The position numbers are program-made. A stretch of 64,000 nt of DNA from NCBI RefSeq assembly GCF_030013205.1, contig NZ_CP122649.1. One strand, 5' to 3'. This DNA is from Escherichia coli (lineage in GTDB: Bacteria; Pseudomonadota; Gammaproteobacteria; Enterobacterales; Enterobacteriaceae). Below, in pieces: positions 27,001-36,000 of this stretch (position 1 is its first letter; each line of letters begins with the position of its first letter).

Positions 27001-30000
27001 CGGTGAAATCAAACCTGAGAGCCCTGTGTGGGTGTATCTCCGAAATCGAGGTCTTAATCGAGTTCTGAGCAACCTTCCCAAGGATTTAGGTCTGAACAAA
27101 CGACTTTACTACATGGATAAGTCACTGGAAAAACCCACGATTTACCCGGGAATGATCGCAATTTATCGCGATACCCGTGGGCGTCCTCTGACAATCCACA
27201 GAACGTTCGTCGAGTTAAATGGTGATAAGGCACATGTTGAGAATCCGAAACTGATGATGAAACCGCCTGCCGATATGACTGGCGGCTCAATTCAGCTGTA
27301 CGATCCACACTTCAATCCAGGTACCCGTACCTGGACGTTAGGTGTGGCTGAAGGCATAGAAAACGCGCTGTCAGTTACTGAAGCGACTTCAACACCGTGC
27401 TGGGCCGCGAGCTCTGCCTGGTGCCTTGAAAACGTTGAAGTGCCGGATAGTCTCCTGCCTCCCCCTGGTGTGAAAGTAATACAGTTTTACATCTGGGCGG
27501 ATAAGGATCTTGTGAATACAAAAGGCACTTCCCCGGGAATGGAGTCAGCTAAACGACTTCAGGAACGTATGAAAGAGTTTTTTGCAAAGCGATATCCCAC
27601 TTCAGAGCTGACAATTAAAGTCTTTGAACCTGATTTCGATATTCCTGTAGGGAAGAAAGGAGTCGACTGGAACGATGTACTAAAATTAACAGGACCGGAT
27701 GGATTCCCCGTAAAATGGGCTCCTGAATGTCTTGCTCAGCTTTAAATCCGATAACTCCCCCGCCTTTTCAGGCCGGGGGGGTTATCTCTTTAGTGTTTAT
27801 TTACGTTAAATCCTAAACAGATAATCCGATTTCCTTCGTGAAAATCACCTGTTATTCAGGTTTTTTTTACGGCTGAGATGCTTGCTCAGTTTAATAAATG
27901 TGCGATACATCTGGCTACGGTCGGTTGTATGACATGGTATATCCATAAAACTTAAAACCCCTGACGGGAGTATTACCGTTAGGGTGATGCTCATCGTTAA
28001 ATATCGGAGAGCATTGTTATGAATATTGAAAATCAAGATTTATTTAATACGTTCGCTGCTGTGATTTCATCTCATATCGTTGAGCAACCATCTTCGTGTT
28101 ATTACCTTCATGATAATGAAATTGACTTCACGATTTTAAAACACAGCATAATAGATAAAGACAAAAACCTGTTGTACGTTATTCGTCCTTCAGGAACCTG
28201 TTTGTTGCGTTGTGATAAATACTTCTTTCCGAATTACTATCTTACAAGTCGTGGAGATTATAAAGCATTTAAGTATGTGCATTTTAATCTTGCAACACGA
28301 GAAGCGGAAGAAATCACCTGGCAGCAAGCTTTTGAAATTTTGTCCAAGCCGGGAAGACCTCCATTAAGAGGTTCACTTGGTAAATTTGATTATTTAAAAC
28401 TTGTTATTGATGATCTTCGTGCGCGAGGGTATGCCGATTTCCTTCCAGCATACAACCTTGATGGCCTTCGTCACTTTGCAGTAAAGGATGAGCGACCATC
28501 ACTTGTCAGTTATATCGACAATGTCATGGCACTTTGCGCATAAAGATAACACATATTTTTACTACATCCCTGATGGCACCTCCCATCGGGGTGGCCCTCA
28601 GAGTTGAATCTGGAGGTCTTATGAAATTAGCTACAGATCTGGTCAATGCGGTTCTGATAAAGAATGGCATTGTACCAACTTCCATTAATGAGTTGCCTGT
28701 AACGTCGCTGGTAAAGCCATTGACACAAGTGCATCTCAGCCTGTATCTGAAAACAACGCATTTATCTCAGTTCGTCCCTGACTACGTTGAGTCTCTGAAA
28801 GATTGTCCGGTTTCGTATGATATCGGCCTTGAACTTCAGCAGTGTATCAACAGTGCTGAATTGCTCTGTGAAGACATGGAGTCACTTGAGTTTATCTCTG
28901 TATGGATAGAGCTCTATACGTGTAATTCAAAGCAACAGCGGTTTGAGAAAAGTAACTTTTCTTTTCGAACTGAAGATATCGAGCTGGCTAAGATGCTGTC
29001 TTGCTCGCATGAAATCTTAATAAGTCAGGCGGCTTGTTTCTGGCTTTTGTATTTTGAAGATTTCATGAAATATGTTCGTAATAGGCTCTGTGCATTACTC
29101 AGACAGGTTTTAATTTTGATTGCAGGACTGCGAAATGTATACCTGCAACGGAATGAAGATCAGTTGATTAAGAGAGTTAAGCACGGGAATGAAATGCTGG
29201 AGGTGACTCTTAAAGCTGTTGCACTATGTTCAATAGAAAGGTATCTGAAATCATATGCCTCTTTACGAACAGAAGCGGCGGCTTCTGGGTTTATCAAATG
29301 CATTCAGTCTTATATCAGTACTGGTTGGAGACATGGCTATATAGTCTGTCAATATTCAAAAAATGGACGGTCTCTTGGTAAGTCATTACCACTTTTTATA
29401 AAAGAGACATCTGAGCATAATATACAGAAACGTGTCAATCGCCTTATATCTTCCACGATTTCGGGGCGAAATAAAGATTTAGGTCTTTACGATTTCTGAT
29501 TAACATTACCCATCCGGGGATTACATCCCTGATGGGTGTAATCCCATTTTTTATTTAAGTGAGGATTACATGAAAATTATTGAGAAAATCATTAATGCAT
29601 TTCTGATATCGCGTAAACATTCAGTGAAGGTCAGTAATGTTATCTGCTTGAGTGGCACCGACGGTAAATTTACTGGAATATGCTGTGACGCCGATGTTTC
29701 ATTTGATTTTCTTTATTCGTATGCCCCCGCATACAGTTCAACATTTTTAGATATCCCGTTTCCTGGGTTTGAAGACCAGGACATCGCGGATTGTGTTAAA
29801 TGTCAGTTAGATGTAGTTAAAAATAAACGGAATCGGTCTTTTTTAATTGACCATATTAGATTTCCAGTTTCCTCAAGGGAAGGATTCACTCTGACACGCG
29901 GTGATAGTTACGACGTGACTGAATGTGAATATAATAAGGAACGATTGCTACATCTGACCCGACAAGGACGTTTTTGTGAAGACTATCTCACGTTCAAGGA

Positions 30001-33000: not shown

Positions 33001-36000
33001 TTGAATACGACGATGTCTGTAGTGAGATCCTGAGTAACTCTGCGGACAGCGCCCAGCCAGGTGGCTATGATCGTGAAGAGTACAAAAGACTGATGGAAGT
33101 TGATGGTCAGGTTTTAATCGCCCGATTTGCACTGGAAAAATTCTGGGATACGCATTTTATTGGGCTTATCAACTATGTATCAGATGAAATAACATCCGGG
33201 CTTTATGAGGTTTATCGCACGTTCAGTGATATAAACATGGCCGGTTATACATTTAGTGAGTATTCATATACGCGTCGTATTACCGACGAACTTAGTTTGC
33301 ATATTTCACTTAAAGAGGACGATTTCGAAGAGCAATTAACCGATTGTTATATGGATGAAACAACGCTGCCGTCTGGCAAGGTGGTTTTACGCCGTAATAA
33401 TGAATCAATTATTGGGATTTATGAAGGATATGCTTCAAAATCTTACTTTCCTATGGTTGCTAATGTTAGAGTCCTTGATACAGATGGTGAAGTTGTTACT
33501 GAACTTTACCAAGGGGTGAATGTATCAGAATTAGCTGGTGGTCGGATTAAAATCCATGACCGTCAGGAATTAATTTCTGAGGTGTTCGCTAACTTACGTG
33601 AATTCATCCCAGCATCAGAGGATAAAATCTTTGATGCGGCATGAGTCCTGAAGGTTGAATTATATATTTTCAGGTTTTTATACTTCTAAGAAGGCACGGT
33701 TATCCGTGCCTTTTTTTTTGCTTTCGTCAAAACTTGCATTGATTTTACAATTTTACAACGTTCTTACTGCCCTATATGTTTTACGGTACTGTACTCTTGG
33801 CACCGTTACATGTAAGCCTTCCATTACCTTCTTCAACCAAACCTAGCCTAATTTACATCCTTCCAGCTGTTTCCTTCTCTGCTTCTTTTACTCGAATGTT
33901 TTGCCCCTTGCTGACGTTTCCGGCAGCACACAGTCCGAATGCTGGAGCCTCCAAATTACTTTTTACTTCTTTTGTTTCGGTTTCGCGAAAATAGGTCTCT
34001 TATCTGAAAAATGGATCGTTAGAGATTTGTATACTGTTTAAAACAAAGGAGTCACTATGCCTGCCACTACAATCCTGAGCAATAACCCTGTGAATTCGGT
34101 CTTCTCTAATGACAATAGCCATTTCACATACCGGCATATTGATTTCAGTATTGAGCTACTGCTTTCTTCAGGAACTGACTCACAACTGGAATATCTGTTT
34201 CTCAAACCGGCGGCTGAAGTAAAGATCGATTTACAGCGCCGTTTAGCTAGTGGGGAACGTTACGTTACAACCGAGAGTTGTGACAATTTTAGCGAAGTTG
34301 ATGGCTGCATGGGACACGATTGCTGAGGACTTTATAACGGCAGGCGTCCGATTTAATACAACACGAGACACTATCACCTAATGATGACTGAATCGTTCTT
34401 TGACTGGGTTGTGTATTGCATCACAGGCGTAATACTGGCATCTGCGTTCCTCGAAGGAAAAAGAACCCGTTTTCCGGCTGCATTTTTTTACGGAAGCATT
34501 GTGCTGCTGGTCGTTTTGATAGTGGCCGGTGCCCTCAACTGGTGGTTCTACCGTTCTAAATTCGGCTCAGTTGTCGTTATTTTTGCCGCGACAACGCTGT
34601 TAATGACCCGATTCAGATTGGTTATTTATGCGTTCAGGTTTCGGACGCTGGTGGCAGATCTCCAATCACATGTAGCCAAGGGATTCAGGATAATCCTTGT
34701 CTTACCCGAAAATGAAGACGAGAAGACCGTTTTGCTTAGCAAATTGTCGAAAGTGATACATTCTGGGACGTTGTTTTATACCCGAACAGCTCTGGGTCCA
34801 TATTCTGGGGATCTCCTGCATGCTCTGGGACAAAAGCACCGAAATGGCGAGGGCTATCTGCTTCTTTGTGAGCAACAACTTCCGGCTCGAACCTGGCTAA
34901 GCACTGTAGAAAACGGTCAACCAGAGAAGTCTATTGCAGTTAATTTTCATTCGATCCCTGATATGGAGTGATACCCCTATGAGCAATACAGATTCACAGA
35001 CCGTACCAGCTGATGCCCTGTGTGAAAACAGTTCTCAGGTGAAAATTCAGCTAAGTCGAAGCGCCTCACGAGCATTGACGACGGCGAAAGAAATTCTTGA
35101 AACCCGAGGGCTGGTATCCGTATCCACTGAAGACCTTGTTCAGGCCTGTCTCGAAGAAAATCAGCCACTCGACCTGGCAAGTATCTATCTTGAGCACCGG
35201 CTAAAACAGAAGGGAACCAGTATCTGTGAATTTTAGTGTTTTCCAACCTATTGGGGAAATTCCGGAATGTGTTTATATAGCTGTAAGTAAAGCACTCTAC
35301 AGGTAAATAATGAAAAGCAAAATTCACTCTTCAGGAACGTCCGGCACGAAACGAGTACTTAAAACGGATATTGCGTTGCCTCTGCTTTGTTGGGTGTTCA
35401 CCAGTCCATTCAGTAACTGGACTGATAAGTTTTTTACCGGCACAGAAGTGCCGGAGGGCTCGCTGCCGGGTCTAGAACAGGCGCCTGAGGCTATCTTCCG
35501 ATTTGTGCTCAATGACGAAGGTTTTGATGTTGGTTTTGACGCGGTGGGAATGGATCTCTGTTGTTTCTCTATCCCGCTTTCGACGATGCCCACAAAGAAT
35601 CTGGACGACGAAGAGACGTTGTCGAGGCTTACCGGCGACGTGATACACGGCGTCCTGCTTTCGCTTCCGGAGTACATTGAAATGCCAGACAGGCTGGTCT
35701 ATCAGCTAACTGATGAGGTCATGGCGTTCAATTCACACTGTGGCAACGGAATTCTACATGGATGGACGACGGCTCAAGAGTTGTGGCGAAACGAGATCCT
35801 GCCACGCACCACTATTTTGATGCAGCAGACATCAGTCATTCACTGAGTTCCGGGGGCTCTGGATGAAAAAGCGACTTTACCTTCTTGAATGGAAACTTCG
35901 TGAGACAAGAGCCTGGTTAGGATGGATGGTGTTCTGGATTATCATCAGTTTTATGTTTTTATCAGCGATGTTCATGACAGGTCATTTGTTAAACAAAGTT

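Follow-up and report, generated by a model that had tools for sequence, protein, structure and literature searches.

Five adjacent genes in a 64,000-nucleotide stretch of Escherichia coli DNA (contig NZ_CP122649.1; the whole stretch is referred to here as the window) encode ancient paralogs of a single plasmid-specific superfamily, which comprises A-type members (gA1, gA2 and gA3) and B-type members (gB1 and gB2). They lie at the 3' end of a long plus-strand operon in an IncHI plasmid backbone – an operon closed by a terminator – and each is preceded by a two-hairpin RNA element that appears, from its sequence and its pattern of covariation, to hide the Shine-Dalgarno (SD) sequence. Taking the evidence together we lean, with modest confidence, towards an account in four parts: one superfamily, control by the plasmid transfer regulon, a lock element acting on translation, and a role of the A and B proteins in establishment.

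The window is IncHI1 plasmid backbone of the pHCM1/pMAK1/R27 type. IncHI1 plasmids, pMAK1 (NC_009981) among them, match positions 28000–34000 at 100% identity, gB1 and its pHCM1 (NC_003384) counterpart are likewise 100% identical as proteins, and the region is present in 282 plasmids (216 at ≥99% identity, 62 at ~85%). The plus-strand run begins past the transfer helicase gene trhI, beside the Tra2 region, and reads g1, g2, g3, a CobS-like AAA ATPase, s1, DUF3150, a CobT-like VWA protein, s2, toprim, U, gA1–gA3, gB1 and gB2; small open reading frames (ORFs), a Tus-like protein, an integrase and hha lie 3' of gB2. RefSeq labels U and all five paralogs 'hypothetical protein'.

All five ORFs begin where the original prediction for this DNA had placed them, and all are annotated RefSeq coding sequences (CDSs). 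The two B-type proteins align by BLASTP from end to end (27.6% identity across 312 aa, E 1e-35 to 2e-37), and the family B motifs quoted in that prediction were found and are conserved in three plasmid lineages. Among the A-type proteins, gA2 and gA3 match by BLASTP across 101 aa (26.7% identity, E 2e-5 to 4e-7) and by profile-profile comparison over ~235 columns (E 2e-7, 92–94% probability). gA1 is undetectable against the other members by BLASTP; compared with a merged gA2+gA3 profile it gives E values of 3e-6 and 1.4e-5 in two runs, and a 271-aa homolog from a distant IncHI-like contig (L010) forms a bridge, being matched by the hidden Markov models (HMMs) of both gA1 (2e-22) and gA3 (2e-6). 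The predicted C-terminal 'SG...RYL' block is recovered in the profile alignment, where gA1 'AAASGFIKCIQSYIS' is set against gA2 'LSGSRQIMKNASRYLK'. As a null control, eight unrelated neighbour proteins were compared with the family profiles: the 24 comparisons gave E values of 0.06–0.7. Values in the same range led us to reject the ~300-aa ORFs g1, g3 and the gene after tus, together with U (0.17–0.26 by hhalign), g2, s1, d2 and DUF3150 as extra members, and a weak B-family match in a further locus (L004) was discarded as a frameshift-ridden assembly.

The original prediction treated A and B as separate families of three and two genes. Paralogy within each set holds; their separation probably does not, since merged profiles point to one superfamily. 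The gA2+gA3 and gB1+gB2 profiles align over 165 collinear columns, from the N-terminal helix to the long central helix (E 1.4e-5 to 1.7e-5, 79–80% probability), and gA1 matches the gB1+gB2 profile over 167 columns (E 1e-4). Across pairwise and profile alignments the similarities are significant between every subgroup, and A and B are probably one superfamily. That the two sets are instead unrelated families lying side by side, with the A–B similarity no more than noise, we regard as improbable. BLASTP returns no A–B match, single-gene profile comparisons of A with B give E values from 0.001 to 0.8, and the Foldseek listing for the gB1 model holds no obvious A-family members; noise is nonetheless hard to reconcile with the merged-profile and gA1–B values when set beside those of the null control, or with models of gA2 and gB1 that match the same external proteins and are alike in size and similar in the order of their helices and strands.

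The models in question were built with AlphaFold2 (AF2) from family alignments and reached a predicted local distance difference test (pLDDT) score of 88.6 and a predicted template modelling (pTM) score of 0.83 for gB1, and 84.6 and 0.80 for gA2. Both run through a similar order of N-terminal helix, beta-hairpin, helices, strands, a central helix of 30–45 residues, beta-hairpins and a C-terminal helix. In Foldseek searches of AFDB50 the two models share uncharacterised matches of ~300 aa from Dickeya, Brenneria, Serratia, Photorhabdus, Pectobacterium, Glaesserella and Salmonella (A0A5B8HP55, A0A421DJK9, A0AAJ1YHK3, A0A6L9JU38 and others, one of which, A0A4R8FL14, is labelled 'NgrC'), with E values of 1e-9 to 1e-7 and template modelling (TM) scores of 0.6–0.66 for gB1, and E values of 1e-3 to 3e-2 for gA2. 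The gA2 model also matches a Salmonella protein of 292 aa, the length of gA1 (E 4e-8). A common fold for A and B is thus probable on these models. The ~300-aa external proteins are the best structural relatives beyond the family and are similar in size to gB1 and gA2, but identity is only 10–13% and they are absent from an HMMER profile search of 1.84e9 proteins; a literature search on 'NgrC' returned unrelated acronyms only.

Had each gene belonged to a different well-characterised family, the case for paralogy would have failed. No relative was found for any of the five in Pfam, NCBIfam, PHROGs, PADLOC or the PDB: comparison with NCBIfam, PHROGs and PADLOC gave nothing at E<0.05, the precomputed Pfam label is '-' for all homologs, profile searches of the PDB by sequence gave nothing, and a tblastn search of 50,697 phage records with gA2 gave no match. 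(The best PHROGs match of U is one family of unknown function, E 0.0045.) Homologs amount to 46, 26 and 12 clusters among 5.8e9 proteins and to 43 of 1.84e9 representatives; by these sequence searches the superfamily is confined to IncHI-like plasmids. The proteins are soluble, of ~35 kDa and alpha/beta in composition, without known fold or family. A-type members are neutral to basic (isoelectric point (pI) 6.3–8.5), B-type members are acidic, and the highest Kyte-Doolittle mean over 19 residues is 0.87–1.51 across the five proteins. No catalytic motif is apparent, the invariant residues being mostly hydrophobic or structural. Surface exclusion (TraS/TraT/Eex type), one of the specificities floated at the outset, is unlikely: the proteins have neither a hydrophobic segment above 1.5 on that 19-residue scale nor a lipoprotein-like or signal-like N-terminus.

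If the duplications are old, orthologs in related plasmids should be closer to each other than are the paralogs within one plasmid. The plasmids compared were IncHI2 (pEC-IMP), an IncHI1B-type plasmid (pLEC-1cb1) and a metagenomic relative (L005); all carry the same five genes as IncHI1 in the same order. Ortholog lengths are 292, 311, 306, 311–312 and 318 aa in the IncHI2 and IncHI1B-type plasmids, and 292, 312, 306, 321 (as called) and 315 aa in the metagenomic relative. Identity between orthologs is 47–63% for IncHI1 vs IncHI2 and 76–88% for IncHI1 vs the IncHI1B-type plasmid; identity between paralogs is ≤28%. The shared order, the near-equal lengths and the greater closeness of orthologs than paralogs place the duplications before the IncHI1, IncHI2 and IncHI1B-type lineages, as the original prediction had proposed.

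That prediction further held that the genes diverged under diversifying selection. The ratio of nonsynonymous to synonymous substitution rates (dN/dS), calculated gene-wide by the method of Nei and Gojobori (NG86) for IncHI1 vs the IncHI1B-type plasmid, is 0.14–0.24 for the five paralogs and 0.04–0.29 for 16 of 17 neighbouring backbone genes, the outlier being s2 (73 aa; dN/dS 0.81, dS 0.07). The paralogs therefore lie within their neighbours' range and, by this measure, are under purifying selection where present: they are among the operon's least conserved genes, yet clearly constrained. A specificity family of variants for immunity, exclusion or anti-defence, evolving fast as its targets change, is quite unlikely. 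Such a family would fit an IncHI1–IncHI2 identity that is the lowest of the operon (47–63%, against 57–87% for most neighbours), a variable copy number, and a dN for gB1 above that of every other gene in the comparison of IncHI1 with the IncHI1B-type plasmid; it would not fit the dN/dS values, ortholog lengths that are the same or one residue apart, or the ≥99% identity over the block in 216 of 282 plasmids, and the lack of a membrane or secretion signal weighs against exclusion in particular.

Copy number shows that the block is accessory. Two copies, one gA1-like and one B-like, are found in one contig family (L010/L011), four (A2, A3, B, B) in another locus (L014), and none in a Klebsiella MOBH plasmid, in which U directly abuts the downstream genes; U itself is kept 5' of the block in every lineage, that with zero copies included. 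In the transfer-proficient plasmid R27 (NC_002305; L015, 11238–13530) gB2 is split by IS2 into fragments of 183 and 135 aa. Insertions of IS1203, IS5 or IS3 were also seen in the 6-kb region of other plasmids (H32, H45, H50).

A hairpin with an anti-SD strand had been noted before each paralog. It is present before all five, and is not peculiar to them: the same bipartite element extends through the operon from 19914 to 32690 and precedes ~12 of its genes. The operon's spacers are strikingly uniform (58–78 nt) and nearly all fold as two adjacent hairpins. The first (HP1) is GC-clamped, with the form CCC-N3-4-GGG(G), loop, (C)CCC-N3-4-GGG; the second (HP2) begins 0–7 nt past HP1 (0–2 nt in most copies), and its anti-SD strand pairs with the SD region, the SD arm ending 0–7 nt 5' of the start codon in most copies. 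The minimum free energy (MFE) fold takes this canonical form of two adjacent hairpins in 49 of 55 upstream regions from six IncHI-type loci, and 75 canonical copies were counted across 8 loci. A covariance model (CM) was trained on 37 copies, among them those before gA1, gA2, gB1 and gB2 of the window, with that of gA3 left out. Searching the 64-kb window, the model gave 10 matches at E≤5e-6, all on the plus strand between 19914 and 32690 and each ending at a start codon; two of the 10 are copies on which it was not trained, and there was no match in the other 51 kb. An Rfam cmscan of 18600–34400 at E≤1 gave no match to the element, with only sub-threshold chance matches elsewhere, and no earlier description of such hairpins in IncHI, IncC or conjugative plasmids was found in the literature searched. 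The positions of the paralogs, elements and associated features are given in Table 1.

Table 1. Paralogs, RNA elements and associated features of the operon, in window coordinates. R27 ORF names (R0199 to R0202) are assigned by gene order.
Feature	Position	Strand	Description	Evidence
gA1	28621–29499	+	292 aa, pI 8.5; most divergent member; R0202	ORF and RefSeq CDS
gA2	29570–30505	+	311 aa; R0201	BLASTP and hhalign matches to gA3
gA3	30583–31503	+	306 aa; R0200	BLASTP and profile matches to gA2
gB1	31576–32511	+	311 aa, pI 5.3; R0199	
gB2	32688–33644	+	318 aa, pI 4.4, net charge ~-31; IS2-split in R27	
Element before gA1	28566–28625	+		CM 31.4 bits, E 4e-7; MFE two adjacent hairpins
Element before gA2	29508–29572	+		CM 46.4 bits, E 1e-11
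Element before gA3	30527–30585	+		CM 35.6 bits, E 2e-8; non-training copy
Element before gB1	31512–31578	+		CM 43.5 bits, E 9e-11
Element before gB2	32627–32690	+	3' end of 176-nt spacer	CM 44.2 bits, E 6e-11
Element before U	27957–28021	+		CM 50.7 bits, E 7e-13
Proximal element	19914–19975	+		
Proximal element	20361–20427	+		
Proximal element	22825–22890	+		
Proximal element	24034–24095	+		
Weak proximal element	26111–26179	+		
Proximal gene run	19914–27745	+	g2, g3, CobS-like AAA ATPase, s1, DUF3150, CobT-like VWA, s2, primase-like toprim	
Spacer, toprim to U	27746–28018	+	273 nt, conserved	
U	28019–28543	+	174-aa hypothetical protein; leads the distal sub-unit U-gA1-gA2-gA3-gB1-gB2; outside the paralog family	
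Intrinsic terminator	33688–33724	+	strong; GGCACGG-TTAT-CCGTGCC then T9, 44 nt past gB2; end of the transcription unit	

Selection for the structure, if it exists, should be visible as compensatory change. In the 44-sequence CM alignment, 17 of 19 pairs show such changes, and in HP2 all 9 pairs vary on both sides. The covariation score is 0.42, compared to 0.22 for shuffles (0 of 500 as high) and 0.10–0.18 when the partners are slid. (The CM alignment replaced RNAalifold on MAFFT, which misaligned the hairpins once distant lineages were included.) The presence of G-U pairs and the lower scores of the minus strand indicate that the element acts as plus-strand RNA. Comparative sequence evidence thus shows a hairpin in which the SD is paired with an upstream strand near the start codon, that pairing being kept by covariation. 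The position of the element also bears on two gene starts in other loci: that of the gB1 ortholog in L005 (element at 5149–5208) is probably 5206, instead of 5173, and that of DUF3150 in L010 (element at 3400–3468) probably 3466, instead of 3406, which agrees with the annotation of L011.

The anti-SD strand has a second potential partner. The top of HP1, made up of the inner 5' strand and the loop, repeats the sequence of the SD arm and is complementary to the gene's own anti-SD, so that it forms a decoy. For gA2 the trio is GGGATTAC (decoy), GTAATCCC (anti-SD) and GGATTAC (SD arm); in IncHI2 the three have changed jointly, to GGGGATCAC, GTGATCCC and GGATCAC. Decoys were compared with the anti-SD strands of their own and of other genes: the mean duplex energy of HP1 5' half with anti-SD is -9.8 kcal/mol for own pairs vs -5.7 for non-cognate pairs, and in 11 of 12 genes the own pair is the stronger (Wilcoxon p=5e-4). 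Numbering the HP1 5' half, HP1 3' arm, anti-SD and SD arm from 1 to 4, the control pairings 2:4, 2:3 and 1:4 show no specificity. The result was replicated in a non-training set from Shewanella (p=0.002, controls null). The alternative decoy:anti-SD helix has a defined register, with 74% of cells paired compared to 64% in shuffles, and a covariation score of 0.295 compared to 0.19 (0 of 500 shuffles as high). On this comparative evidence the anti-SD has mutually exclusive partners in a conserved structure. In the gA2 copy the alternative helix (12 pairs, 29517–29545), with ATTTTTTATT after it, was flagged as terminator-like; this fold could also terminate transcription, a reading that is clear for the gA2 copy only and was dropped for the others.

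The element is not restricted to IncHI plasmids. The CM also matches start-codon-proximal spacers of the Klebsiella MOBH plasmid, of Shewanella aestuarii pPN3F2_1 (L017, 6800–21600; E 5e-8 to 1e-4, with at least 12 canonical copies by folding) and of a Vibrio cholerae IncC plasmid (L018, 10900–24540; E 7e-9 to 2e-3). In the IncC plasmid the matches include spacers before ssb, a lambda-exonuclease-like gene and a yfaE-neighbour gene, and one of them (11332–11396, E 7e-9) ends at an unannotated ATG, which suggests an unannotated small ORF. Elements of both the Shewanella and the IncC plasmid sit in operons downstream of traN. The DUF3150 protein of pPN3F2_1 is only 19.5% identical, and the element is kept by covariation across plasmid families in which DUF3150 and the ATPase are only 20–29% identical.

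These features suggest a translational lock. By default HP1 would hide the decoy and HP2 the SD, and translation would be off; were HP1 to open, the decoy would take the anti-SD, leaving the SD free and translation on. A ribosome terminating upstream could unzip the clamp and so chain translation gene by gene – in compact spacers the upstream stop codon is a median of 9 nt from HP1, and ≤12 nt in 38 of 56 cases – or the trigger could be an RNA-binding factor encoded by plasmid or host. The computed cost of opening the ribosome-binding site (RBS) has a median of 11 kcal/mol at 37 °C and 14 at 25 °C. RBS opening differs between the operon and other window genes at p=0.01, in a comparison whose control set is compromised (five pMAK1-based starts could not be located) and to which we give little weight because the pMAK1 control coordinates were mismatched to the window.

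The arrangement of segments resembles that of the ermC and cat attenuators, in which there are likewise four segments, segment 3 masks the SD in segment 4 and the upstream hairpin decides; for many copies of the plasmid element an upstream ribosome is a plausible trigger. Attenuators of this kind, however, switch from 1:2 plus 3:4 to 2:3 when a ribosome stalls on a leader peptide, whereas the alternative pairing here is 1(+loop):3, a dedicated leader peptide is absent and the 'leader' is the preceding full-length gene. When own and cross pairings were compared, the 2:3 (erm-like) and 2:4 pairings were rejected: p values were 0.40 and 0.95 for 2:3, and 5e-4 and 0.002 for 1+loop:3. RNA thermometers (ROSE, fourU) and translational riboswitch platforms place the same pairing of an upstream anti-SD with the SD before the start codon, but usually as a single 5' leader; the plasmid element is repeated ~12 times per operon, adds a second GC-clamped hairpin with a gene-specific anti-SD decoy, and has no Rfam match.

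Could the hairpins serve some other purpose, with SD pairing incidental? They might process or stabilize mRNA (protecting 5' or 3' ends left by RNase E cleavage), act as barriers to Rho, or be repeats akin to repetitive extragenic palindromes (REPs). HP1 is stable and GC-clamped, with A/U-rich sequence 5' of it, the gA2 alternative fold with its run of T resembles an intrinsic terminator, and processed transcripts are reported for a neighbouring R27 operon (PMC7366339). A pure stabilizer, on the other hand, would have no need of a gene-specific match between decoy and anti-SD that is replicated in distant plasmids; HP2, moreover, always takes in the SD, mostly 0–7 nt from the start codon and with covariation at 9 of 9 pairs, and the G-U pairs and lower minus-strand scores indicate action as plus-strand RNA. 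We therefore consider this explanation unlikely.

Less likely still is that the elements are RNA thermometers coupling translation to the temperature-sensitive transfer of IncHI plasmids. Sequestration of the SD is the principle on which thermometers work, and both IncHI transfer and the operon's mRNA are under temperature control; but melting would favor expression at 37 °C, where the mRNA is absent. The direction is thus the reverse of what a simple thermometer would give, and the hairpins are too stable for one – their opening cost is high at 37 °C and higher at 25 °C. The element is found, too, in IncC and Shewanella plasmids, and we know of no thermosensitive transfer in IncC plasmids.

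A broader reading, which we put forward tentatively and hold to be less probable than the four-part account, is that the elements are intercistronic riboregulators of a new class, in which three partners (locked decoy, anti-SD and SD) make up a switch. This switch would give conditional, and possibly sequential, translation in the transfer-regulon operons of MOBH/MPF-F plasmids, a range that takes in IncHI and IncC of enterobacteria and Vibrio as well as Shewanella, and in IncHI would guard an A/B establishment system of new fold.

Transcriptional data are available from R27. Gibert et al. (2020) give expression profiles for all R27 ORFs, and their Table S3 provides anchors: R0003 is trhI, R0005 trhN, R0195 insD (of IS2) and R0182 hha (PMC7366339). 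By gene order R0002 to R0204 would correspond to g1 to toprim, R0203 to U, R0202–R0199 to gA1, gA2, gA3 and gB1, and R0198 to the 5' fragment of gB2. A 9-gene cluster, R0204 to R0002, was induced 5- to 23-fold at 25 °C (PMC7366339): given this mapping, it would be exactly g1 to toprim. In the wild type R0198–R0203 are essentially silent (27–129 units); in the htdA mutant drR27 at 25 °C they rise 38–116-fold to 2740–6669 units, and at 37 °C they stand at 16–64 units (PMC7366339). Derepression in the htdA mutant at 25 °C together with silence at 37 °C therefore places the block in the TrhR/TrhY-HtdA transfer regulon. The R27 ORFs further downstream, R0194 and R0193, are unexpressed (PMC7366339).

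Within the operon mRNA drops 3- to 8-fold from R0204 to R0203 in the R27 arrays (PMC7366339), a step that matches the conserved 273-nt spacer before U. This spacer contains a GC-rich terminator-like hairpin at 27762–27782 (GATAACTCCCCCGCC...GGGGGGGTTATC), a second hairpin followed by a run of T at 27847–27861, and a block of ~70 nt that is nearly invariant between IncHI1 and IncHI2; from its sequence it probably acts as an attenuator together with an internal promoter or operator. Between IncHI1 and IncHI2 the spacer is far more conserved than the synonymous sites of the flanking genes. Somewhere within it the window differs from pMAK1 by an indel of 1 nt.

What, then, might the proteins do? 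With low confidence we propose that they are non-enzymatic binding proteins acting as A+B sets, that their roles lie outside the pilus, exclusion and replication, and that they act during or just after conjugative transfer, either in establishment in the new host or in neutralizing host factors. The establishment role is suggested because the genes are under transfer-regulon control, are dispensable and variable in copy number, have a minimal set of one A and one B, and include acidic B members; control by the transfer regulon would also yield zygotic induction in a recipient lacking HtdA. An accessory, specificity-type function in establishment or anti-defence is possible, and would fit the variable copy number, the disruption of gB2 in a transfer-proficient plasmid, the co-regulation with transfer genes and the acidity of gB2. 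The accessory genes of conjugative plasmids that come closest (ArdA, KlcA/ArdB, ArdC, PsiB and SSB) are likewise plasmid-borne, dispensable, variable and co-regulated with transfer. In overall composition gB2 is very acidic (pI 4.4, charge -31), a possible likeness to DNA mimics, and one external structural relative (A0A5Y2S904; rank 39, E 7e-3) carries a fusion to DUF1738, the N-terminal domain of ArdC. The paralogs nevertheless have no sequence or profile match to ArdA, ArdB/KlcA, ArdC, Acr, PsiB, SSB or the PADLOC models, typical DNA mimics are about half their size, and the paralog block adjoins Tra2 and not the oriT of Tra1. An anti-defence island of the leading region was dropped as an explanation: the block lies past trhI in Tra2, and oriT is in Tra1.

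In the main alternative, the paralogs would serve the upstream-encoded machine (CobS-like ATPase, DUF3150, CobT-like VWA protein and primase-like toprim) as adaptors or structural subunits, working in the processing of plasmid DNA or the priming of its replication and not on host factors. They share strand and regulon with these genes and lie directly downstream of them, and the upstream module is conserved across IncHI, IncC and Shewanella plasmids. Yet in the Klebsiella, Shewanella and IncC plasmids that module occurs without any paralog – it thus has no need of them – and a terminator-like spacer divides the two parts. There is, in our estimation, little probability that the paralogs are such subunits.

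Several points tell against the four-part account that we prefer. With respect to the proteins, the homology of A and B rests on probabilities of 58–80%, the Foldseek TM score of gA2 with external proteins is only 0.34–0.42, and the 292-aa Salmonella match is a putative gA1. The mapping of R27 ORFs to genes follows order, with four anchors. For the RNA element, covariation was counted on an alignment fitted to the model, and the relatedness of paralogous and orthologous copies inflates the shuffle statistics. For 19 canonical elements the nearest annotated stop codon is >35 nt away, and in the extreme 723 nt: termination by an upstream ribosome is therefore no universal trigger. At about -25 kcal/mol, against about -10 for the decoy:anti-SD helix, the OFF state is by far the more stable, and the switch therefore needs active input; the literature searched holds no experiment on the effect of the hairpins on translation, or on their opening. 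Finally, the establishment or anti-defence role is argued from context, and the operon lies outside the classical leading region, away from the oriT in Tra1 (for the Tra1/Tra2 layout see PMC7366339).

Other features of the operon deserve mention. A near-perfect hairpin of 28 bp at 26437–26495 covers the SD and ATG of the toprim gene (26492), and its computed opening cost, 29 kcal/mol, is the maximum of the operon; this start codon is uncertain because in the IncHI2 and IncHI1B-type plasmids the start is annotated 21 nt downstream, outside the hairpin. The product of g2 (19973–20350, 125 aa) is the operon's most conserved protein (87% identity for IncHI1 vs IncHI2) and has no family match: being small, highly conserved and encoded in an operon full of RNA locks, it is a candidate trans-acting factor. 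In the 176-nt spacer before gB2 a palindrome, AAAAAGTAACTTTG (32538–32551), is kept with small variations in five plasmid lineages, the remainder of the spacer around it being unconserved, and may be a protein-binding site; a similar sequence lies inside gA1 (28948–28961). The same spacer in IncHI1 contains a 16-codon ORF (32560–32610) that stops 16 nt 5' of the gB2 RNA element. The IncHI1B-type plasmid carries a counterpart of 15 codons, which the other lineages lack.

Elsewhere in the window, at 12002–15025, the interval from trhN to trhI in pMAK1-type plasmids holds two additional genes, one hypothetical and one for an ATP-dependent helicase, both absent from IncHI2 (and, by ORF numbering, from R27). 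A pair of 167-aa ORFs at 41192–41695 and 43615–44118 are 90% identical. In the GC-rich right-hand part, ORF segments at 54931–55647 and 63744–64000 are 100% identical and probably represent an insertion sequence present twice.

Plasmids of the IncHI and IncC groups rank among the major carriers of multidrug resistance (mcr-1, blaNDM and the multidrug resistance of typhoid are examples), and about two thirds of the genes of R27 are without known function. A run of 'hypothetical proteins' in this backbone is now one plasmid-restricted superfamily, variable in copy number and placed in the transfer regulon, and is a concrete candidate for functions in host range or establishment. As for the RNA element, its architecture, with an unusual decoy, would make it a variant of SD-sequestering control; it is widely distributed in MOBH plasmids, is apparently undescribed in Rfam or the literature searched, and suggests that conjugation-linked genes are controlled at a second, post-transcriptional level as well. 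Should the termination of ribosomes or a plasmid factor open the lock, this would explain how costly or toxic genes are kept silent despite leaky transcription, and would provide a compact and portable design for chained translational control.

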